Shown: positions 37,466 to 50,221 of the stretch, in pieces
Position numbering within the stretch: the stretch's first letter is position 1
Layout: every line of letters begins with the position of its first letter
Assembly: GCA_021163295.1 (NCBI GenBank)
Contig: JAGGXD010000213.1
Span: 1-50,221 of the forward strand
Origin: Bacteroidales bacterium
GTDB lineage: Bacteria > Bacteroidota > Bacteroidia > Bacteroidales > VadinHA17
Direction of reading: 5' to 3'
DNA length: 50,221 nucleotides
The notes under the pieces: model-generated
Told to the model about the DNA's origin: nothing
The model's database searches: none
The model's input: the letters and a program-made list of their open reading frames with translations, nothing else
Position numbers and translations under genes: made by a program

Positions 37466-40400
37466 ATGATAAATAGTATAATATCCTTTTCAATAAAGAA
37501 TAAGGCTCTAATCTGGCTTATGACCATAGGCTTAGTTATTGGCGGAATCTATTCCATGACCAAAGTACCGCTCGATGCCATGCCTGATATTACAAACAAT
37601 CAGGTTTTAGTTATTACTACTGCACCCAATTTGGGTACAGAAGATATTGAACAGTTTGTAACCTATCAGGTTGAATTGGCCGTGGCAAACCTTCCAGATG
37701 TAACTGAGATACGAAGTGTATCTAGGTTCGGACTGTCAGTTGTAACAATAGTATTTGAAGAAAGTGCAGGAACCTATCTTCCAAGACAATTGGTGAGTGA
37801 AGCCTTAGTTGAAGTAAAAGAGAAAATACCCGAAGGCTTTGGAGAGCCTTTCATGGCTCCAATAAGTACTGGCTTGGGCGAAATATATCAATACACACTC
37901 GAAGTACAAGAAGGTTTCGATACCGTTTATGACGACATGGAACTTCGCACTATGCAGGAGTGGATAGTAAAGCGCCAAATGGCCATGTTACCGGGGGTCG
38001 TAGAAGTTAACTCTTTTGGCGGTAGAGCTAAACAATATGAGGTTGCTGTTAATCCTGACAAACTACGCAGTATGGGACTAACAATTACTGATATTTTTGA
38101 TGCCCTTGAGGCCAACAACCAAAATACAGGTGGAGCATATATAGAGAAAAACTATCAGGCAAATTTCATTCGAGGTGAAGGTTTAATGAGGTCGCTCGAT
38201 GATATTAAAAACACCGTAGTATCAAATAAAAATAATCAACCTGTTTTTATTCGAGATGTAGCAGAAGTTAAATATGGGAGTTTTGTGCGGTTTGGGGCTT
38301 TTACCAAAAATGGTAAAGGAGAAGCTGTTGGAGGAATAGTGATGATGTTAAAAGGGGAAAACTCCAATGATGTTATTAAGGCGGTAAAAGAACGTGTGGC
38401 CTTAATTCAAAAATCCTTACCCGAAGGAGTAGTAATAAAATCATTTCTCGACCGTAGCAAATTAATAAAAAGTACGACTTCTACAGTTGCCGAGAACCTT
38501 TCATTGGGAGCATTAATTGTAATTTTTGTATTGGTAATATTCTTGGGTAATCTAAGAGGTGGCTTAATAGTAGCATCAACTATTCCATTAGCATTGTTAT
38601 TTGCTTTTATCATGATGAATCTTTTTGGGGTATGGGCAAACCTGATGAGTCTTGGAGCACTTGATTTTGGAATTCTGGTTGATGGTGCAGTAATTATTGT
38701 GGAAAGTATGATTTTTTACTTGCATAAGAAAAACTTGATTGGAACAAAACTTGATCAACCCAAACGCAATGAAATTGCCTATAAATCGGCAAGTAAAATG
38801 ATGAACTCTGCATTTTTTGGTCAGCTAATTATATTAATTGTTTTTATTCCCGTGCTGGCTCTTCAAGGTGTTGAGGGTAAAATGTTTATCCCAATGGCTA
38901 TGACATTTGGCTTTGCAGTACTTGGAGTGGTGGTATTGTGTTTAACTTATATACCCATGATGGCTGCCCAATTTCTTCAACCACCAAAAACTGATAAAAA
39001 AACATGGGGTGATAGATTAATTGGCAAACTTGAAAAGATATACAGTCCGATTATAGATTGGGCAATTAAGAGGAGTCGTATTGTTATAGCAATTGCTTTG
39101 GTATTATTAATATCAGGTGGTTTCTTATTCACGCGAATGGGTGCTGAGTTTATTCCGAAACTAGATGAAGGGGATTTTGCATTTCAAGCATTTTTAAAAC
39201 CCGGCACTTCGTTAACTGAGGTTACAAAAGCTTCTACAAGATTGGAACAAATTGTACTGGAGAATTTTCCGGATGAAATAGAAAGTATTCAAAGTAGAAT
39301 TGGTGTGGCAGATTTACCAATGGACCCGATGCCGATAGATATTGCCGATATTTTTGTCATTCTAACTCCACAAGACCAATGGACTAGAGTAGAATCTAAA
39401 AAGGAATTAATTGATAAAGTTAGAGAAAAGGTAAGTGTTTTACCCGGTATCAACTTTGAATTTAGTCAACCCGTTGAGATGCGTTTTAATGAATTATTAA
39501 CAGGAATTCGTCAAGATTTAGCCGTTAAACTCTATGGCGATGATTTAGAAATTCTTGCGGATAAAGCAGAAGAAATTGCAGGTTTAGTTGCAGGAATTGA
39601 TGGTGTGGCTGCTGTTAAAGCTGAAGCAACCAGAGGACTGCCACAAATCACTGTAAATTACGACCGTAATAAGATGGGGCGGTATGGTTTAAATATAACT
39701 GAACTTAATACTGTTATCGAAACTGCATTTAGTGGTGGTGTTGCCGGAAGTATCTATGAGGGTGAAAAAATGTTTGACCTTGTTGTAAGGTTAGATGAAG
39801 AACACCGAACAAGTATAGATGATATTCGAAACTTATATGTCAATTTACAAGATGGAAACCAAATTCCTATAAAGGAAGTTGCTGAAATCAGTTATCAACC
39901 AGGTCCTATGCAAATAAGTCGTGATAATACCAATAGGCGAACTTATGTTGGGATAAATGTTGAAGGTCGTGATATAAAGTCGCTTGTTGAAGAAATCCAG
40001 ACAACATTGGATAAGAAATTAGAATTACCTACAGGATATTATATTCGTTATGGGGGTGCATTTGAAAACCTTGAAAGAGCTTCAAAAAGATTATCTCTTG
40101 TTGTTCCACTCGCCTTGGCTTTAATATTTATGTTGGTGTTTTTTGCAGTAAAATCATTCAAGCAAACGCTTATGATTTATGTTGCAGTACCCTTTGCTGC
40201 TGTAGGTGGAGTATTTTCATTGTTTTTAAGGGACATGCCTTTTAGTATCTCTGCCGGGGTAGGATTTATTGTTTTGTTTGGTGTAGCAGTACTAAATGGT
40301 TTAGTTTTAATAAGTGGCTTTAATGAATTAAAGCAAGAGGGTAAACTACATATCAATGATATTATTAAAAAGGGGTCGATAAGACGTATCCGACCAATTT

Positions 40401-41806
40401 TATTAACTGCGTCAACTGATATTCTAGGATTCTTGCCAATGGCAATATCGGCCTCCGCAGGTGCAGAAGTACAACGTCCTTTGGCAACAGTTGTAATTGG
40501 TGGTATGCTCACATCTACTTTACTAACGTTAATTGTTCTGCCAATTTTATACAAGTATGTTGAATCAGGTAAAAAAACTATTAAACTTCCTAAAGTAGCA
40601 ACAGCTGTTTTAACTATACTAATGATTGTAACTATTTCAGTTTTTCCAAATGAACTTAGTGCTCAAGATTCATCTCTTAACTTGCAACAAGCAATAGAAA
40701 GGGCAAAGGAGAATTATCCTTCTATAAAAGCTGCTCAGATGGAGATTGACAAGCAAAAGGCACTGAAAGCTACTGCTTATGATTTTGGGAGCACATCAAT
40801 TTATACTGGAAAGGAAGAAGTGGGGAATGGTATGCCGGGAGTTAAAAACCAGATAGGGATCGGGCAATCAGACATTGATATTTTTGGTATTACTGCGAAA
40901 AGCAAATTAGCCGATGCACGTACTCAACAAGCTGTAATGGGACTGAATTTAACTGAGCAAACACTATCGCGAGATGTGAGTATTGCCTGGTACAATGCAG
41001 TTTATTTTAAGCAACAGTGGTTGCTTTTTAAGGAACTTGACACCTTATACGCCGACTTTCAGAAAGCTGCAGAGTTGAGGTATAAAACTCAGCAAACTTC
41101 TAAAATTGGATTTCTTTCTGCATCAGCTAAGTATAAAGAATTACAGGTAGATATTAAAATAGCAGAGAGTAACTATTTGGCAAGCTTGCAAATCTTAAAT
41201 CAATACTTGTTATATCCATCCGAATTTGACGTTAGAATTCAAAATATCGGGCAGCATGTTTTTGATATCGTTTCAAAGAGCGAATCATTAATTGAAAGCC
41301 CATTATTGAATTACTATTCTACAGCCATTAATGTTGCAGAATCGGAATGGAAAACAGAAAAAGCCAATTTCCTGCCTAAATTAAACCTTGGCTATAAATT
41401 GCAATCGGTTGATGGCAATTCGGGATTTTACGGATGGAAAGCAGGTGTAACTATTCCAATGTTGTATTTCTCTCAATCAGGAAAAACAAAAGCTGCAAAT
41501 ATAAATTTGCAGATTACTAGTCAGCAGTACCAACAAAAGGAACTGGAAATAAAAGCCGGGTATAATCAACAGATTAGCAGATACCTTGCATTGCAAGACG
41601 TAATTAACTATTACAGAGCTGAAGCAATACCATTGGCGGATGAGCAAATTCAAGCATCTAATTTGGCATATAAACTTGGTAGTATAGACTATATCCAGTT
41701 TATTCAAAATATGGAAACTGCGATTAATACAAAACAGGAGTTTCTAATTCAACAGGCAGAATACTTTGAATTGTCAGCTCAATTAAAATACATAACTGGT
41801 AAATAA
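37466..41806 (+). CDS. czcA: CusA/CzcA heavy-metal RND permease fused to a C-terminal TolC-like outer membrane factor
   Basis: DAMPDITNNQV, SLGALDFGILVDGAVIIVE, RIRPILLTA and GAEVQRPLATVVIGG; an extra ~400-aa OEP-like tail. Confidence 0.93.
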   Translation: MINSIISFSIKNKALIWLMTIGLVIGGIYSMTKVPLDAMPDITNNQVLVITTAPNLGTEDIEQFVTYQVELAVANLPDVTEIRSVSRFGLSVVTIVFEESAGTYLPRQLVSEALVEVKEKIPEGFGEPFMAPISTGLGEIYQYTLEVQEGFDTVYDDMELRTMQEWIVKRQMAMLPGVVEVNSFGGRAKQYEVAVNPDKLRSMGLTITDIFDALEANNQNTGGAYIEKNYQANFIRGEGLMRSLDDIKNTVVSNKNNQPVFIRDVAEVKYGSFVRFGAFTKNGKGEAVGGIVMMLKGENSNDVIKAVKERVALIQKSLPEGVVIKSFLDRSKLIKSTTSTVAENLSLGALIVIFVLVIFLGNLRGGLIVASTIPLALLFAFIMMNLFGVWANLMSLGALDFGILVDGAVIIVESMIFYLHKKNLIGTKLDQPKRNEIAYKSASKMMNSAFFGQLIILIVFIPVLALQGVEGKMFIPMAMTFGFAVLGVVVLCLTYIPMMAAQFLQPPKTDKKTWGDRLIGKLEKIYSPIIDWAIKRSRIVIAIALVLLISGGFLFTRMGAEFIPKLDEGDFAFQAFLKPGTSLTEVTKASTRLEQIVLENFPDEIESIQSRIGVADLPMDPMPIDIADIFVILTPQDQWTRVESKKELIDKVREKVSVLPGINFEFSQPVEMRFNELLTGIRQDLAVKLYGDDLEILADKAEEIAGLVAGIDGVAAVKAEATRGLPQITVNYDRNKMGRYGLNITELNTVIETAFSGGVAGSIYEGEKMFDLVVRLDEEHRTSIDDIRNLYVNLQDGNQIPIKEVAEISYQPGPMQISRDNTNRRTYVGINVEGRDIKSLVEEIQTTLDKKLELPTGYYIRYGGAFENLERASKRLSLVVPLALALIFMLVFFAVKSFKQTLMIYVAVPFAAVGGVFSLFLRDMPFSISAGVGFIVLFGVAVLNGLVLISGFNELKQEGKLHINDIIKKGSIRRIRPILLTASTDILGFLPMAISASAGAEVQRPLATVVIGGMLTSTLLTLIVLPILYKYVESGKKTIKLPKVATAVLTILMIVTISVFPNELSAQDSSLNLQQAIERAKENYPSIKAAQMEIDKQKALKATAYDFGSTSIYTGKEEVGNGMPGVKNQIGIGQSDIDIFGITAKSKLADARTQQAVMGLNLTEQTLSRDVSIAWYNAVYFKQQWLLFKELDTLYADFQKAAELRYKTQQTSKIGFLSASAKYKELQVDIKIAESNYLASLQILNQYLLYPSEFDVRIQNIGQHVFDIVSKSESLIESPLLNYYSTAINVAESEWKTEKANFLPKLNLGYKLQSVDGNSGFYGWKAGVTIPMLYFSQSGKTKAANINLQITSQQYQQKELEIKAGYNQQISRYLALQDVINYYRAEAIPLADEQIQASNLAYKLGSIDYIQFIQNMETAINTKQEFLIQQAEYFELSAQLKYITGK

Positions 41807-45823: not shown

Positions 45824-45915
45824 TTTTTTAAAAAAATTGTTGAGTTAGCGGAGTTCTACCCAAAAGTATTTTCGTTATATTTAACATTAAAAAGTGAGTG
45901 GAATTGCCCTCCCTA

Positions 45916-45984
45916 TTTGCAAGCACATTGCCAAAGCCACACGAGCCATCGCCAAAACCAAAGCTTTGTCAAAGAGCTTGCAAA
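45916..45984. repeat. Structured hairpin element, copy 2
   Basis: Outer stem TTTGCAAGC/GCTTGCAAA, inner stem CAAAGC/GCTTTG; homologous to 35876-35942. Confidence 0.7.
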
Positions 45985-46171
45985 GCCAGCCCAATTAACC
46001 GCCTTGATGGGCGGTTTTAGAATTGCCCACTCACAAAAAACAAAATAAATTTGTGCTCCGTTAAAAGGGTCGGACCATCTGAAAAGACTACAAATAGAGA
46101 CTTAAATAATTGACAGACAGAATGAATAATGAACGCCCAGTTGCTAAAGGCTCATACGTAATGCGGGGTTC

Positions 46172-46903
46172 ATGAAATTCATAAAAGGAGAAAACCGAAC
46201 ACAAATCAATCTTTTCCCGGTTTCCCTTGAACATGCTATTAATGAAGATAATGAAGTACGTATCATCGATCTGTTTGTTGATAGTGTGTCATTGGAAGAC
46301 TATGGGTATTTGAATAAGGTTCGATCATCGAGAGACCTGGAAAAAGAATGCAAGCGCAATATTGAAGTAATGTGGTTGCTTAAAAATCTAAAGCCAGATC
46401 ATAACACCATTTCAAACTTTCGCCAGGATAATCCAAAGGCCATTAATAAGGTTTTTAGGGCAACCGTTCAGATCGCAAAGAACTTCAATCTTATAGGAGG
46501 TAAACTCATTGCCGGCGACAGCACAAAATTCAGGACACATAACAGCAAGAACATACCGTTTTAAGCGATACACTACTAAGGCTTGTATGGAATGTCCGGT
46601 AAAAGAAGAGTGTTCAAAGGCCAAGAAAGGTAAACAACGGGCAAGCGCCGATGTTGGTTTTATGTTCATCGCTTACAATCTCAGACGGATTATAAACATT
46701 GTTGGAAAAAATGCTCTAAAGAAGTACCTGGAGGTGCTTGTTTTATTAGTTTCGGGGAAATATCGTTCGATAAGGCTTAAAATAAGCCTGTTAAAAGCAA
46801 TCAAATATTTACACAAAATCTTAACCTCTTATTTTGAAGGTTGCTTAAATAGGCTTAAATTTGATCAAAACTTACTTAGTACTGTAGGTTTTTAGACGAA
46901 CTG
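46172..46903 (+). mobile_element. IS1182-family remnant with several internal deletions; left end lost, right IR kept
   Basis: RSSRDLEKEC...PDHNTISNFR...GDSTK; C..CP....C; AYNLRR; right IR AGGTTTTTAGACGAACTG at 46886-46903. Confidence 0.85.
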
Positions 46904-46905
46904 CC

Positions 46906-46921
46906 GTTAGCGTTCATGCTT
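46906..46921 (+). other. attC-like R'-type cassette start
   Basis: GTTAGCGTTCATGCTT is near-complementary to AAGCACGAAACGCTAAC at 49965-49981. Confidence 0.6.
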
Positions 46922-46965
46922 AAAAAAAGACTTGTTACAACCTGACAATAAAAATTTAATGATTC

Positions 46966-47021
46966 TTTGAACGATTAAAAAAAAAATATTATTTTTGTTG
47001 TCTATTTGGCCAAATTGACAA
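46966..47021 (+). promoter_or_regulatory. Promoter plus ArsR operator
   Basis: TTTG-N20-TATTTTTG (46966-46997) is followed directly by the 24-bp near-perfect palindrome TTGTCTATTTGGCCAAATTGACAA. Confidence 0.75.
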
Positions 47022-47026
47022 ACACT

Positions 47027-47341
47027 ATGAATCAAGAAATTATTCAGACCTATCAGATTGAATCTTCTATTTTCAAGTCTATGGCACATCCAATTCGGTT
47101 GTTCATCATACATCAACTTGAAAATAAGAAATATGGAGTCCAAGAACTTGCAGACATGGCTGAAATTGATATTTCAACTATGTCAAGACATCTTGACACC
47201 TTAAAAAGGCATAGAATAATTGCAGGTGAAAAAATAAAAAATAATGTGTTTTACACATTAAATATACCCTGCGTTCTTGAATTTATGACATGTGCCAATA
47301 AAGTTATAAACCAACAAAATAAATTAGGAGGAATAATATGA
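47027..47341 (+). CDS. ArsR/SmtB family repressor
   Basis: FKSMAHPIRL, STMSRHL, VFYTL and C-terminal PCVLEFMTC. Confidence 0.9.
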   Translation: MNQEIIQTYQIESSIFKSMAHPIRLFIIHQLENKKYGVQELADMAEIDISTMSRHLDTLKRHRIIAGEKIKNNVFYTLNIPCVLEFMTCANKVINQQNKLGGII

Positions 47342-47727
47342 ACGAAGTAGAAAATGCAATCAGCAAAATGGATTTCCAATATTTTGGAACCGGACAACAC
47401 AAGATCGATGCAGAATCATTTCTTAAAAAAGAAGATTCAGTATTTTTAGATGTCCGTGCAAAAGAAGAAACAGAAACAATAAAAATTGTTTTGAAACATC
47501 ATCTTCCCGTGATTGAAATACCGCTTCATGAACTTCCATCAAGACTAAATGAGTTGCCAAAAGACAAACATATTGGAGTATTCTGTTCCAGTGGAGTAAG
47601 ATGCTCGATTGCTTTTGCTTACCTGAAACACAAAGGTTTTGAAAACGTAAGAATTGTTGAAGGCGGTTACGTACAGCTTCTAGATGCTTTAAACCCCGGT
47701 AAAGTATATAAACATTTAAATAAATAG
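47338..47727 (+). CDS. Single-domain rhodanese (sulfurtransferase)
   Basis: FLDVR, active-site FCSSGVR and VEGGY. Confidence 0.9.
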   Translation: MNEVENAISKMDFQYFGTGQHKIDAESFLKKEDSVFLDVRAKEETETIKIVLKHHLPVIEIPLHELPSRLNELPKDKHIGVFCSSGVRCSIAFAYLKHKGFENVRIVEGGYVQLLDALNPGKVYKHLNK

Positions 47728-47739
47728 GGAGCGAAAAAT

Positions 47740-48534
47740 ATGAATATCTGGTTATTATCGCTTATTATACTGGCAATCGCAGTATTTATGGTCATGACAG
47801 GGCATGGTGGAGGAAATTTCTTTATTATAGCATTGGTTTTAGCGGGAATTGAAATGCATGTTGCTGCTGCTTCCGTTCAGTTTATTCTGTTTACAGCAGC
47901 TTTTTTTGCCATGGTTGTTTTTGGAAGAAAGAAATTCGTGGAATGGAAATTAGCTGTTATTATGGGCGTCTTAATTGGAATATCAGCTCTTTTAGGAGGC
48001 TTTCTTTCCGATTATGTAGAAGGGAAATGGCTCAAACTTATTTTATCTGTTTTGCTATTCTTCCTTGCTATTTTAATGTTAAAACCCTTTATAGCAAACC
48101 CGGTTGAAACTATAAAAACAGGTTGGAAATATTTGGACATAAAATCGTTTGATAAAACACTTACGTATTCTGTTAATCTTTTAATTATTGTTCCAGTAGT
48201 TTTAGTTTTTGGATTTGTTGCGGGAATGGTAGGAATATCGGGTGGCTCCTTCATGGTTCCGTTACTTGTATTGGTATGCAAAGTGCCAATGAAAAATGCT
48301 GTTGCTACCGCAAGTACATTGGTTGCCGTTTCAGCATTATCCGGTTTTATCGGACATGCAGCTGCAGGACATTTTGACTATCGTATTGCTGTTCCTCTTG
48401 CTATTGGCGGAGCCATTGGAGGTCTTATCGGAGGTAGTATTGCCATTAAAACAAAACCAAAATTGCTGAAAATTCTCTTTGCTATTACAACTCTTGTTGC
48501 AGCTATTATTATGGCTTATAAAATTTTTTACTAA
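47740..48534 (+). CDS. TauE/SafE family sulfite exporter
   Basis: GHGGG and GMVGISGGSFMVP repeats; about 8 TM helices. Confidence 0.9.
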   Translation: MNIWLLSLIILAIAVFMVMTGHGGGNFFIIALVLAGIEMHVAAASVQFILFTAAFFAMVVFGRKKFVEWKLAVIMGVLIGISALLGGFLSDYVEGKWLKLILSVLLFFLAILMLKPFIANPVETIKTGWKYLDIKSFDKTLTYSVNLLIIVPVVLVFGFVAGMVGISGGSFMVPLLVLVCKVPMKNAVATASTLVAVSALSGFIGHAAAGHFDYRIAVPLAIGGAIGGLIGGSIAIKTKPKLLKILFAITTLVAAIIMAYKIFY

Positions 48535-48550
48535 TAAATACCTGTCAGCT

Positions 48551-48585
48551 TAACAGAGAGGGGAATAAGAAACCCCTCTTTGTTT
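48551..48585 (+). terminator. Hairpin between the TauE and porin genes
   Basis: AACAGAGAGGG...CCCTCTTTGTT followed by TT. Confidence 0.5.
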
Positions 48586-48601
48586 TAAAACAGAAAAACT
48601 T

Positions 48602-49945
48602 GTGTTTAAAAAGGAATTATTAATTATTTGTTTCCTGGCATTAATTGCCGATATAAAGTTGTTTGCACAAAAGGATTCTTCTAAAATAGAGTTTGATGCA
48701 AGTATCCGCGAACGCTTCGAACTATGGGATGGTATGAATAAAAAAAATTATGGAGATGATAATCCCGAAGCAATCGGTTCTCTTGATGATAAAACACTTT
48801 ATCAAAGAATTATTGCAGGTTTTGTTTTTCATCCAACAACATCCATCGATATTTCTGCCCATTTGCAGGACTCGCGCACTTTTGGCTGGTCATTACGAAA
48901 TGCTGAATATCCCGATTTGTTTAAGGTAAAAGCTAAAAATACCCAAGAGCCCTACTACATTATGAATCCAAATGAAGAGTTTTTTGAAATCCATGATTTA
49001 TACATGGAATATCGTAACTTAATCAAAAATTTAACTCTTACGATTGGAAGACAAAAAATATCTTATGGCGACCATCGCGTTTTTGGTCCCGGAAAATGGG
49101 GCAATACAGGACGCTGGACATGGGATGCGATAAAAATTTCCTATAAAAACGGTTCGAATTTTATTGACATTTTGGGTGGTGGAACTAAAATCCATGATCC
49201 GGAAAAAATTTCAATACCTTTTATCAAAACAGAATTCTGGGGAGGTGGTTTATATGCACATTATGAATGGGAAAAAGTTGTAGATATTGAACCTTTTTAT
49301 GCATTAAAGAATGAAGGATCGTCAGATTATGCCAGAACACTCAATTTTACAAGACATTGGGTAGGGATTCGTTTATTTAATAACAATTTTTATCATTTTG
49401 TTTATGATATTACCGTAAATAAAGAATTTGGGAATGAGAATAACAAAACAATAGATGCCTATGGTATACTTGCTAAATTTGGATATCAGTTTAATTTTCT
49501 ACCGGCTAAACCCATATTATCTATAAGGGAAAGTTACGCATCTGGTGGAACTGTGGGGAATAAGATAAAAACATTTGACCCGGCTTATGGTTCGCGTGAC
49601 AGTTACTATGGCAGAATGAACATCGTCAAATGGTCAAATATTGACGACTATGAAATTTTGTTAGATATGTTTCCTGTTAAAAATATGAAAATTGAAATGA
49701 ACTATCACTGGTTTTATGTTCCTGTGCCGGATGATGTTACATTGCTTGGAACCATGAAATTGCAAACAGGTAAACAACATTTAGGCAATGAGTTTGATAT
49801 CTTTGCCAGTTACCAGGTATTAAAACAATTGCAGATTGTAACTGTTTTTGGTTATTTCATGCCAGGAGATATTCAACCCATAAATAATCACGATGCGAAA
49901 AATGCTACTTGGTTTGCATTTCAATTACTTTACAAATTTAAATAA
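48602..49945 (+). CDS. Alginate-export (AlgE-like) family outer membrane beta-barrel
   Basis: Signal peptide; RERFE, LQDSR, IGRQKISYGDHR, ASG, TFDP and LGNEFD; aromatic C-terminus. Confidence 0.8.
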   Translation: MFKKELLIICFLALIADIKLFAQKDSSKIEFDASIRERFELWDGMNKKNYGDDNPEAIGSLDDKTLYQRIIAGFVFHPTTSIDISAHLQDSRTFGWSLRNAEYPDLFKVKAKNTQEPYYIMNPNEEFFEIHDLYMEYRNLIKNLTLTIGRQKISYGDHRVFGPGKWGNTGRWTWDAIKISYKNGSNFIDILGGGTKIHDPEKISIPFIKTEFWGGGLYAHYEWEKVVDIEPFYALKNEGSSDYARTLNFTRHWVGIRLFNNNFYHFVYDITVNKEFGNENNKTIDAYGILAKFGYQFNFLPAKPILSIRESYASGGTVGNKIKTFDPAYGSRDSYYGRMNIVKWSNIDDYEILLDMFPVKNMKIEMNYHWFYVPVPDDVTLLGTMKLQTGKQHLGNEFDIFASYQVLKQLQIVTVFGYFMPGDIQPINNHDAKNATWFAFQLLYKFK

Positions 49946-49964
49946 CTAAACTGGGGAAACTAAA

Positions 49965-50099
49965 AAGCACGAAACGCTAACAATATATAAAAATAATAGC
50001 CGGTTTAGTAGTGAACTCAAGGGTTGTAGCCCGCTTCAACTTCATCGTAAATTGAAAGTTTTGATTACCGCAATTGGCTACTATTCTTATATTCACCGT
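49965..50099 (+). other. attC-like imperfect hairpin at the cassette end, interrupted by an IS
   Basis: ...CGCTAAC, then arm ATATAAAAATAATAGCCGGTT pairing with AATTGGCTACTATTCTTATAT, ending in CACCGT at the IS junction. Confidence 0.6.
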
Positions 50100-50221
50100 C
50101 AGACTGTCTAAAAACCTCTTGATCTTGTTCATAACTTTATGATAAAAATCCAGATTAAAAGACTGATTATTAGTATCTTTAAGTATGAAATTCATAAAAG
50201 GAGACAACCGAACACAAATCA
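50100..50221 (+). mobile_element. Left end of a second IS1182 copy (runs off the window)
   Basis: IR CAGACTGTCTAAAAACCT matches the reverse complement of 46886-46903 at 15/18; ATG 50185 MKFIKGDNRTQI is near-identical to 46172. Confidence 0.85.

Follow-up and report, generated by a model that had tools for sequence, protein, structure and literature searches.

Can a set of genes be an integron-type cassette in a genome in which no integron integrase is found and, if so, which enzyme would move it? This question is raised by the right-hand part of a 50,221-nucleotide stretch of DNA from a Bacteroidales bacterium of the VadinHA17 lineage (assembly GCA_021163295.1, contig JAGGXD010000213.1), referred to here as the window, in which an original prediction made from the sequence letters had placed an integron-like multi-gene cassette ending in an attC-like site. 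The attC sites of integrons are imperfect inverted repeats of the type R''-L''...L'-R', with conserved AAC/GTT triplets and a length of about 57-141 nt. From an analysis of the boundaries of this unit, of the family of sites to which its end belongs and of the recombinase genes found with such sites, we conclude that window 46907-50098 is probably a gene cassette of an integron-like site-specific recombination system. In a wider and more tentative reading, which we place just short of probable, Bacteroidota and their allies would carry an undescribed, phylum-wide 'I2-less integron' (I2 being one of the insertions specific to the integron integrase IntI), consisting of a dedicated recombinase with a novel N-terminal domain, an attI-like site past its stop codon, co-oriented and often multi-gene arrays, and bulge-free hairpins in which two invariant G.T wobbles mark the reactive strand.

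The window is the entire contig C88 of the host draft genome, G000 (272 contigs, 96.6% complete). Other genomes are denoted by G, contigs by C, retrieved loci and metagenome contigs by L and metagenome runs by X. Family-level surveys refer to 201 genomes of the host's family, and the four runs (X1, X3, X5 and one other) enter as assembled contigs only, in which rare forms cannot show.

Boundaries of the cassette

The cassette and the sites at its two ends comprise the following features.

46143..46171, plus strand: 5' half of an upstream attC-like site, R''-like CAGTTGCTAA then L'' ATACGTAATGCGGGG, by direct reading; truncated by the remnant of an insertion sequence (IS)
46906..46921, plus strand: extended R' box GTTAGCGTTCATGCTT, complementary to 49965-49981 and kept as GTTAGCGTTTATGCTT in metagenome contigs L211 and L212
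46907..50098, plus strand: cassette proper, from the TT... to the ...G of G|TT, 3192 nt; 90% nucleotide identity to L212 115-3309, with other flanks on both sides
49965..50098, plus strand: attC-like site, from family alignments, covariation, boundaries and a second genomic copy at G000:C150; extended R'' 49965-49981 (AAC 49979-81), L'' 49986-50002, conserved centre, L' 50075-50091, last G of G|TT 50098

The cassette begins G|TTAGCG, the bar marking the crossover point, and ends in a site of about 120 nt running from the AAC at 49979-81 to the G at 50098. The end sequences quoted in the prediction lie where it had placed them: AAGCACGAAACGCTAAC is found at 49965-49981, 19 nt past the stop codon of the porin gene (49943-49945), and its reverse complement, GTTAGCGTTTCGTGCTT, agrees with the cassette start in 15 of 17 columns, the others being one mismatch and one gap of 1 nt. 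The chance of such complementarity is about 2e-6 at a fixed register beside the GTT/AAC cores and below 6e-5 with a gap allowed. Likewise, the two arms of the palindrome, ATATAAAAATAATAGCCGGTT (49985-50005) and AATTGGCTACTATTCTTATAT (50072-50092), are complementary at 17 of 21 positions, and CACCGT stands at 50094-50099. The start 16-mer has no further close copy within the window, and in a generic repeat scan the end repeat is not among the 25 longest of 170 inverted pairs. The upstream half site lies 3.8 kb from the complete one and on the same strand, with no IntI nearby or in the genome; it is too short for the nhmmer profile, and its 15-nt L'' is identical to that of one site subfamily (alignment A3).

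The boundaries are seen directly in metagenome contigs L211 and L212, which carry the cassette at 90% nucleotide identity with no IS, the homology covering exactly window 46905-50099. The encoded proteins are identical to those of the window at 98% (ArsR), 99% (rhodanese), 98.5% (TauE) and 77% (porin) of positions. Upstream of the cassette L212 has the 3' end of a different site (..CCGCGGGAAC|GTTAGCGTTTATGCTT), and downstream an intact site (..TATACAAACC|GTTATAC..) followed by another gene or further cassette. In runs X3 and X5, which come from two further studies, contigs take up the cassette at 46905 behind the 3' end of the same foreign site, so that in all these IS-free junctions the gene content switches at G|TT, the point at which the prediction had proposed to look for such a switch. 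The IS-flanked form of the window is the one present in contigs of run X1, one of which spans 49116-50124 without differences.

Conservation and folding of the sites

The site at the cassette end belongs to a large family. A copy with 88% identity stands in G000:C150 next to another IS from the same family, further copies of the IS being without it, and BLAST detects the site in 51 of the 201 genomes, distributed over 13 of 20 genera. The exact two-arm pattern retrieves at least 120 stretches in named records with no IS; the matches listed include Bacteroidales, Marinilabiliales, Flavobacteriales, Cytophagales, Saprospiraceae, Balneolaceae, Ignavibacteria, Chlorobiota, Marinimicrobia and a few others. 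The palindrome is consequently not a part of the IS, a possibility that the prediction had named as one that would speak against it. In the host genome an iterated profile gives 24 matches spread over 15 contigs, C150 and C25 each having an array of three sites on the same strand.

Conservation in this family starts at ..YAAC and stops at ..CGTT(A/G), where the information content falls (76 sites). In an alignment of 109 diverse sites the AAC is kept in 104 and the GTT in 101, the AAC-to-GTT span ranging from 120 to 133 nt. The complementarity outside the core, which the prediction had listed as a peculiarity of the window site, is in fact a family trait: it extends beyond the 7-nt core and gives an R stem of about 10-14 bp. 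No match for the site was obtained in an Rfam scan at E <= 1.

The L stem is under constraint. We have modelled covariation over the 109 sites with 21 pairs (the three of AAC/GTT and the 18 of the L stem), using shuffled alignments and slid registers as controls. Paired cells amount to 85.4%, against 60.3% in the shuffles, of which 0 of 500 reach the observed value; cells changed on both sides number 492, against 66-129 in the slid controls; and the covariation score is 0.569, against 0.133 in shuffles and at most 0.098 in slid controls. Two positions of the stem show A.C on the top strand, which is the gene strand, in 98 and in 107 of the 109 sites; on the bottom strand they are G.T. The bottom strand has the more stable fold in 23 of 30 copies. 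Bulged bases of the IntI type were not seen in the L stem, the arms of the aligned sites pairing in register.

Arrays of sites and the cassettes between them

Sites of this family form arrays in which all members lie on one strand: G055 has 8 sites in 41 kb and G149 has 6 in about 20 kb, in both cases 5-30 nt past the stop codons of co-oriented genes. Among 35 readable loci, every one of the 13 with at least two sites has them all on the same strand. The genes in between encode HigB, HepT/MNT and PIN toxin-antitoxin pairs, glyoxalase, beta-lactamase-fold and MBL-fold proteins, cupin, SnoaL and a Cass2/GyrI AraC regulator, a cargo that is typical of chromosomal integrons.

In a cassette array the sequence following G|TT should pair with the R'' of the next site, and the 13-mer after G|TT indeed recurs as its reverse complement (at most 2 mismatches, within 12 kb) downstream of 11 of 22 sites, against upstream of 5 of 22, a single repeated mini-element accounting for 3 of these 5. 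Immediately behind the downstream copy another site begins, which the first profile had missed. Together with the arrays, this pairing bears out the expectation that homologous hairpins coincide with the borders of the cargo.

Two kinds of small unit were observed along the way. A small, apparently ORF-poor unit (ORF, open reading frame) recurs at about 75% identity at window 45889-46171, G000:C14:996-1333 and C188:5915-6061; it has an inner inverted repeat (45916-45937 / 45963-45984), its C14 copy ends in an attC-like site, and it is probably a mini-cassette. In G055, a repeat of about 100 nt, with start GTTCAGGCACATT and end AATGTGCCTGAAT, follows four sites (L027:4387, 9583, 13217 and L028:18697) and may be an empty cassette.

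A candidate recombinase and its attI-like junction

The prediction had held that an integron integrase is lacking and that a recombinase acts in trans. We have used TIGR02249 at no less than 265 bits, or intI_Cterm, as the test for IntI. No TIGR02249 match over the cut-off was found in the 96.6%-complete host draft, in agreement with the first statement, nor in G055, G149, G059, G093 or the 5 complete chromosomes carrying sites. As to the second, a candidate for a dedicated tyrosine recombinase was found; it is encoded on contig C132 of the same genome, and therefore the enzyme need not come from elsewhere.

This candidate, a XerA/IntI-like protein of 374 aa (G000:C132:232-1353, minus strand), is the best non-IntI match in G000. 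It combines a SAM-like core-binding domain (PF13495) with a catalytic domain (PF00589) and scores 231.9 bits with NF040815 (cut-off 220), 198.7 with TIGR02249 (cut-off 265) and about 190 with XerC and XerD; in a six-frame search with TIGR02249 it is again the best match in the genome, in two pieces of 121 and 83 bits. The RKHRHY set is intact, with R227, K252, H316, R319, H342 and Y351 invariant in alignments A2 and A4. When aligned with two IntI proteins (A2), the enzyme is found to be without both IntI-specific insertions, including I2, and to have an extra N-terminal part of about 95-110 aa. The closest solved structures are XerA (4a8e/5hxy), followed by IntI4/VchIntIA (2a3v). The N-terminal domain, of about 80 aa, is modelled with confidence (pLDDT 89.6), with the order beta-beta-alpha-beta-beta-alpha-beta. 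It matches no Pfam family, its matches in the protein atlas are to unnamed Bacteroidota clusters only (at most 0.90), and Foldseek returns nothing at E <= 0.001; leads below the level of trust are the N-domains of T4 UvsW (Z 6.4) and XPB (5.5) and the HARP domain of SMARCAL1 (4.1).

In many Bacteroidota, arrays are headed by genes of this type. In G058, G192 and G052, loci chosen because recombinase and sites share a contig, the homologue is co-oriented and directly upstream of the array. Among 20 further loci picked by the gene alone, same-strand sites lie downstream in 6, as in G093, which has four sites, the first 700 nt past the recombinase stop codon; sites upstream or on the opposite strand occur in 0 of 20. 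Of the 14 loci without such sites, 9 lie on a contig that stops less than 1.5 kb past the gene. As an observation on its own, draft contigs very often end 100-1500 nt past the recombinase gene (L189, L192, L193, L195, L197, L198, L200, L203, L206 and G000:C132), which fits with repeats, either sites or junction regions, breaking the assemblies.

A GTT(A/G) junction is present about 85-230 nt past the recombinase stop codon in all 11 loci inspected. In G000, G058, G020 and G055 it reads ..ATACAC..(A/T)A(A/T)(C/T)|GTT, with TGTATACATATAC-type repeats ahead, and has the attI-like form TATACAAAC|GTT. In 7 of 9 family-level loci the 13-mer that follows the junction pairs with a reverse complement 0.5-1.2 kb downstream (at most 2 mismatches), and in 6 of these 7 the partner abuts the first site detected by the profile. 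The 13-mer of the junction in G000:C132 has no partner in the draft save for paralogous junction regions; behind the C132 gene stands a repeat that recurs at the ends of the site-bearing contigs C14 and C110.

The same arrangement appears across the phylum. A sample of 400 other genomes contains the homologue at E <= 1e-80 in 24, giving 27 loci, of which 11 have a GTT(A/G) 44-250 nt past the gene whose reverse complement, beside an L''-like start, lies 0.3-1.3 kb further on; the signature allows at most 1 mismatch and a partner ending in AAC, and its chance is by our own estimate about 0.007 per locus. Profile matches are found downstream in 10 of the 27 loci and upstream in 0. The recombinase, junction and first-cassette signature occurs in three cultured strains: Labilibaculum filiforme 59.16B, Marinifilum breve JC075 and Lutibacter litoralis JCM 13034. 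Within the host's family, sites are present in 10 of 15 genomes with a close orthologue (at least 50% identity) and in 40 of the other 185 (Fisher p 5e-4; the genomes are not independent). The C132-type enzyme is hence the most likely recombinase of these sites, by analogy with integrons.

Three side observations concern recombinase genes. At G000:C125:1030-1197, 840 nt from the site at C125:57-188, there is a 56-aa C-terminal fragment of a recombinase, which we rejected as IntI, being C132-like. A gene for a single-strand-binding protein stands divergently upstream of the recombinase gene in G058 (L184:7819-8172), and this may be a coincidence. Two loci of the family, L041 (G027:C74) and L042 (G032:C142), contain classical IntI genes (423 and 406 bits) with short canonical attC sites nearby, of which one has a bulged base. 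The host's family may contain two cassette systems side by side.

Insertion sequences and introns at the crossover point

The window cassette is flanked by two IS1182-family elements.

46172..46906, plus strand: decayed IS1182-family element, 5'-truncated (it begins at the transposase ATG), with internal deletions; right inverted repeat intact at 46886-46906
50099..50221, plus strand: left end of an IS1182-family element, left inverted repeat TCAGACTGTCTAAAAACC; transposase ATG at 50185, the contig ending within the element

The left-hand remnant has fragments of Pfam DUF772 and DDE_Tnp_1_6, matches piecewise the full copies in G000:C181 and C76 and is supported by inverted-repeat pair I10; the full copy in C181 scores 350.7 bits with NF033551. 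Both copies are in direct orientation and are inserted at 46906/46907 and 50098/50099, that is, between G and TT. Consequently the window cassette is locked and unable to recombine, with an IS in both of its junctions and half of the upstream site deleted.

This target choice is general in the host genome. All 4 genuine right ends of the family are followed by CGTT(A/G); of the 8 left ends, 7 come after CG, with the L' arm of a site ahead in no fewer than 5 of these. Insertion at the G|TT point, possibly with a 2-bp CG duplication, is seen in contigs C76, C127, C150, C171 and C181 and in loci L114, L186 and L027:2675, in the form ..CCG|TCAGAC...CTGCCG|TTA.., and the same junction exists in other genomes. 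We know of no report of an IS1182-family element targeting recombination sites. The idea that the GTTAG at the start of the unit is IS end sequence was rejected on the IS-free junctions of L211/L212 and runs X3 and X5: GTTA follows the IS ends because the IS inserts at G|TT.

Other invaders were noted in G055. At L027:11345-13100 a different IS1182-family element sits in the loop beside R'' (..CATAAC AATG|IS|AATG TATAAAAAT..), with an apparent 4-bp AATG duplication, and from L027:19255 to L028:2890 a group II intron, 5' end GTGCG, directly follows the ..AACGT of a site; it carries RVT_1 and GIIM ORFs, one of them split.

Proposed mechanism and alternative explanations

The sequences show where the cassettes end, that their two ends pair, which family of sites bounds them, how the arrays are laid out, that the stem covaries, that the recombinase gene adjoins arrays and that IS target the sites. 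The chemistry, the use of a single-stranded bottom strand as substrate and the acting enzyme are what we infer by analogy with integrons. As a single strand the site would fold so that the R stem (R''/R', about 10-14 bp) is followed by a small internal loop, then by the L stem of 18 bp and by the conserved centre, the R stem forming only when the cassette ends are joined. A Xer-like enzyme would bind the folded bottom strand at its R and L boxes, one strand would be exchanged at G|TT and replication would resolve the product. Excision between two sites would then yield a circle, which could re-enter at the attI-like TATACAAAC|GTT or at another attC-like site. In place of bulged bases read by I2, recognition may rest on the two G.T positions, on the longer R stem and perhaps on binding of the conserved centre by the N-terminal domain. 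The analysis supports the circularisable cassette of the original prediction and adds to it a candidate enzyme, an attI-like junction and the targeting of the sites by IS.

A number of results weigh against this interpretation. The plus strand of the window site, folded as DNA, is no better than its shuffles (-9.5 kcal/mol, z +0.33); the minus strand with RNA parameters has z -2.1, and single-sequence hairpin energies are not exceptional. The weight of the cassette reading lies on comparison with other sequences (family conservation, covariation and the IS-free copy) and not on single-sequence statistics. The circle junction (50098 joined to 46907) was not seen in the contigs of the four runs, which do not reveal rare forms. 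The recombinase is encoded on another contig than the window and is linked to its cassette by family only; the large arrays of G055 and G149 are far from any such gene, a recombinase inside 8-kb site loci is rare (1 distant match in 35 readable loci), about half of the site-bearing genomes show no N-domain-type homologue at E <= 1e-50, and 4 of the 20 loci picked by gene have more than 4 kb of downstream sequence with no site detected. Also, classical IntI co-occurs with the sites, and IntegronFinder might call these as ordinary attC or as a cluster of attC sites with no integron integrase (CALIN). One alternative is that the window holds an ordinary integron remnant, in which classical attC sites are served by a canonical I2-bearing IntI, lost or acting in trans, and the Xer-like gene merely neighbours a favoured insertion point. 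Indeed, IntI exceeds the TIGR02249 cut-off in 7 of the 201 genomes, 5 of these 7 carrying the site family against 45 of 193, the sites do have attC architecture, and CALINs are described as common in passages of Cury et al. 2016 (PMC4889954). However, the nhmmer profile finds none of these sites on IntI contigs, the sites seen by eye next to intI being short and with a bulged base of a kind not seen in the present stems, and IntI is absent from all 5 complete site-bearing chromosomes as well as from G055 and G093. Such a view also leaves unexplained the conserved junction 44-250 nt past the Xer-like gene, whose 13-mer pairs with the first site, and we consider it unlikely.

The other explanations accept part of the observations. 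The same system might work by a different chemistry, the Xer-like enzyme acting on double-stranded or cruciform sites with a two-strand exchange, as at dif or in plasmid dif modules. This would suit an enzyme whose nearest solved relatives are XerA proteins and which is without the I2 helix, described in part of Escudero et al. 2020 (PMC7790495) as conferring single-strand recombination. We take it to be quite unlikely, since R'' and R', separated by about 120 nt, can pair only through folding of the strand, the L stem shows covariation, and the two mismatches are asymmetric between strands (A.C on top, G.T at the bottom), which is relevant only to single strands. A structured RNA or terminator at the 3' ends of operons, with no role in recombination, would be in line with an element that is always just past co-oriented genes and has a covarying stem and a conserved centre; it is very improbable, given the lack of an Rfam match and the fact that the conserved positions are A.C mismatches on the transcribed strand, and it does not explain the switching of content at G|TT or the R'/R'' pairing across cassettes. 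We give the least credence to an IS artefact or composite transposon, in which the terminal repeat would derive from IS ends and the unit would move, if at all, by its flanking IS1182 copies. The direct orientation of these copies and the CCGTTAG that follows IS right ends in the window and in C181 are what this explanation has in its favour, but GTTAGCG.. follows another attC-like site with no IS in L211/L212, X3 and X5, and the left IS has lost its left end and has a broken transposase.

Relation to known systems

Arrays of VCR sites in Vibrio cholerae are an example of a sedentary chromosomal integron; Xer-dependent dif modules occur on Acinetobacter plasmids; and IS1111-attC insertion sequences and group IIC-attC introns invade integron recombination sites. 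The system described here shares with integrons the imperfect palindrome R''-L''...L'-R' of about 120 nt with AAC/GTT triplets and G|TT crossover, the pairing of the 5' end of a cassette with its own R'', the same-strand arrays after short accessory genes, toxin-antitoxin pairs included, and a primary site beside the recombinase gene. It differs from them in its recombinase, which unlike IntI has neither of the two insertions and has an extra N-terminal domain, and in the layout of the locus: whereas in a complete integron intI is divergent, with attI and the promoter Pc in between, here the recombinase is co-oriented upstream of the array and the attI-like site lies past its stop codon. Unlike classical attC, the sites are bulge-free, with two invariant G.T/A.C positions, an R stem of 10-14 bp and a centre conserved across phyla. 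The cassettes are often multi-gene, that of the window measuring 3.19 kb against about 2 kb for the largest known according to part of Cury et al. 2016 (PMC4889954). The window would resemble a CALIN if its two attC-like sites (one a half site), which lie on one strand less than 4 kb apart in a genome where IntI is found neither nearby nor elsewhere, count as attC; the CALIN is a descriptive class of presumed integron debris, whereas here a different recombinase heads intact arrays. An I2-less enzyme of the Xer family, with hairpin substrates or modules moved between short sites, is a likeness to Xer recombination of single-stranded CTX-phi DNA (passages of PMC7790495) and to dif modules, which in contrast rely on the housekeeping XerCD and dif-like 28-bp cores, not on attC-like hairpins in arrays headed by a dedicated gene. 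Finally, the invasion of sites by mobile elements parallels IS1111-attC and group IIC-attC, the invader here being a DDE-type IS1182-family element (NF033551) at G|TT.

In the literature, reviews have treated Bacteroidota as almost devoid of integrons, and passages of the IntegronFinder 2.0 article to this effect (PMC9024848) mention only In0 earlier in Bacteroidetes and one complete integron, in Salinibacter. Portions of two other texts, reviews and work on archaeal integrons (PMC8618304, PMC9668308), list Bacteroidota among the integron-bearing phyla, with cassettes usually of one ORF, and part of a preprint (10.1101/2024.07.02.601686) names Bacteroidota, Bacillota and Actinomycetota and notes that systems occur even in clades earlier found integron-free. 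With regard to the enzyme, Cury et al. 2016 (PMC4889954) mention in part of their text 50 recombinases without intI_Cterm near attC sites; there also, 4 that are 'intermediate between IntI and Xer', with fewer than 3 attC each, were judged not to be IntI, which is a further point that tells against our proposal. Smyshlyaev et al. 2021 (PMC8138268) distinguish an 'integron-like' subgroup of recombinases with incomplete conservation of the insertion, and passages of Escudero et al. 2020 (PMC7790495) hold that the I2 helix, reading bulged bases, is needed for cassette capture and that evolutionary intermediates are lacking. A literature search, most subscription journals and supplements being outside its reach, gave no description of arrays headed by a recombinase such as that of C132.

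If the wider reading is true, the 'I2-less integron' would represent the intermediate that has been missing between Xer and IntI, or else cassette capture would have been invented independently; with an array system under a relative that has no I2, the origin of integrons could be put to a direct test. Such a system would also imply that marine, sediment and vent Bacteroidota harbour a large and hidden stock of mobile cassettes, parasitised by IS1182-family elements and introns, and would explain many 'orphan' attC-like clusters as well as the presence of a putative sulfur-handling module between two IS copies beside a metal-efflux island.

Cargo genes and surroundings of the cassette

The window cassette contains the following genes and signals.

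46966..46997, plus strand: putative Bacteroidota-type promoter, -33 TTTG at 46966-46969 and -7 TATTTTTG at 46990-46997, by direct reading
47027..47341, plus strand: ArsR/SmtB-family regulator gene (PF01022; NF033788 58.1 bits, cut-off 55)
47338..47727, plus strand: rhodanese-domain protein gene (PF00581, E 4e-11)
47740..48534, plus strand: TauE/SafE-family membrane exporter gene (PF01925, E 7e-42)
48558..48590, plus strand: G+C-rich hairpin followed by a T run, a possible internal terminator between the TauE and porin genes, by direct reading
48602..49945, plus strand: outer-membrane porin gene of the Alginate_exp family (PF13372, E 7e-29), mosaic allele

The Bacteroidota promoter consensus is TTTG / TAnnTTTG. 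A scan for sigma-70 promoters is uninformative, with 14 promoter-like sites against 14.1 expected, and a terminator scan with a loop limit of 8 nt called none, the hairpin at 48558-48590 included. The prediction had described the cargo as a self-regulated four-gene operon with its own promoter. An ArsR-type regulator gene and a putative promoter motif are present. The hairpin and the mosaic porin suggest three genes plus one and not one tight four-gene operon. In contigs of runs X3 and X5 the porin segment 49001-49556 is replaced by 557 other letters; this swap and the 77% identity of the porin, against 98-99% for the other three proteins, point to recombination inside the cassette, as judged from sequence comparison. 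The cargo is a self-contained module with its own ArsR-type regulator, for which the family names of the products suggest a role in sulfur-anion handling or export.

The occurrence of the operon elsewhere without these ends had been named as a result that would count against a cassette. A distantly related copy was found in this state: G125 has the same four genes by ORF size and order, with a DNA match of 65-68% over rhodanese-TauE and over porin, and no site. The close copy keeps its ends. Searched for in the family, the operon gives matches in 14 of 200 genomes, at 64-71% nucleotide identity only, and 70 of 72 metagenome loci with a porin homologue are without a site. The distant gene set occurs without site ends, and therefore we read the cargo as a chromosomal module captured as a cassette.

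As for the remainder of the window, metabolic genes of ordinary kind fill it up to about 33 kb, followed by an rve-type IS at 34.5-35.7 kb and by the metal-efflux island at 36.0-45.8 kb. Inside this island, a 1446-aa ORF (37466-41803) corresponds to a resistance-nodulation-division pump of AcrB/CzcA type fused to an outer-membrane efflux protein domain.

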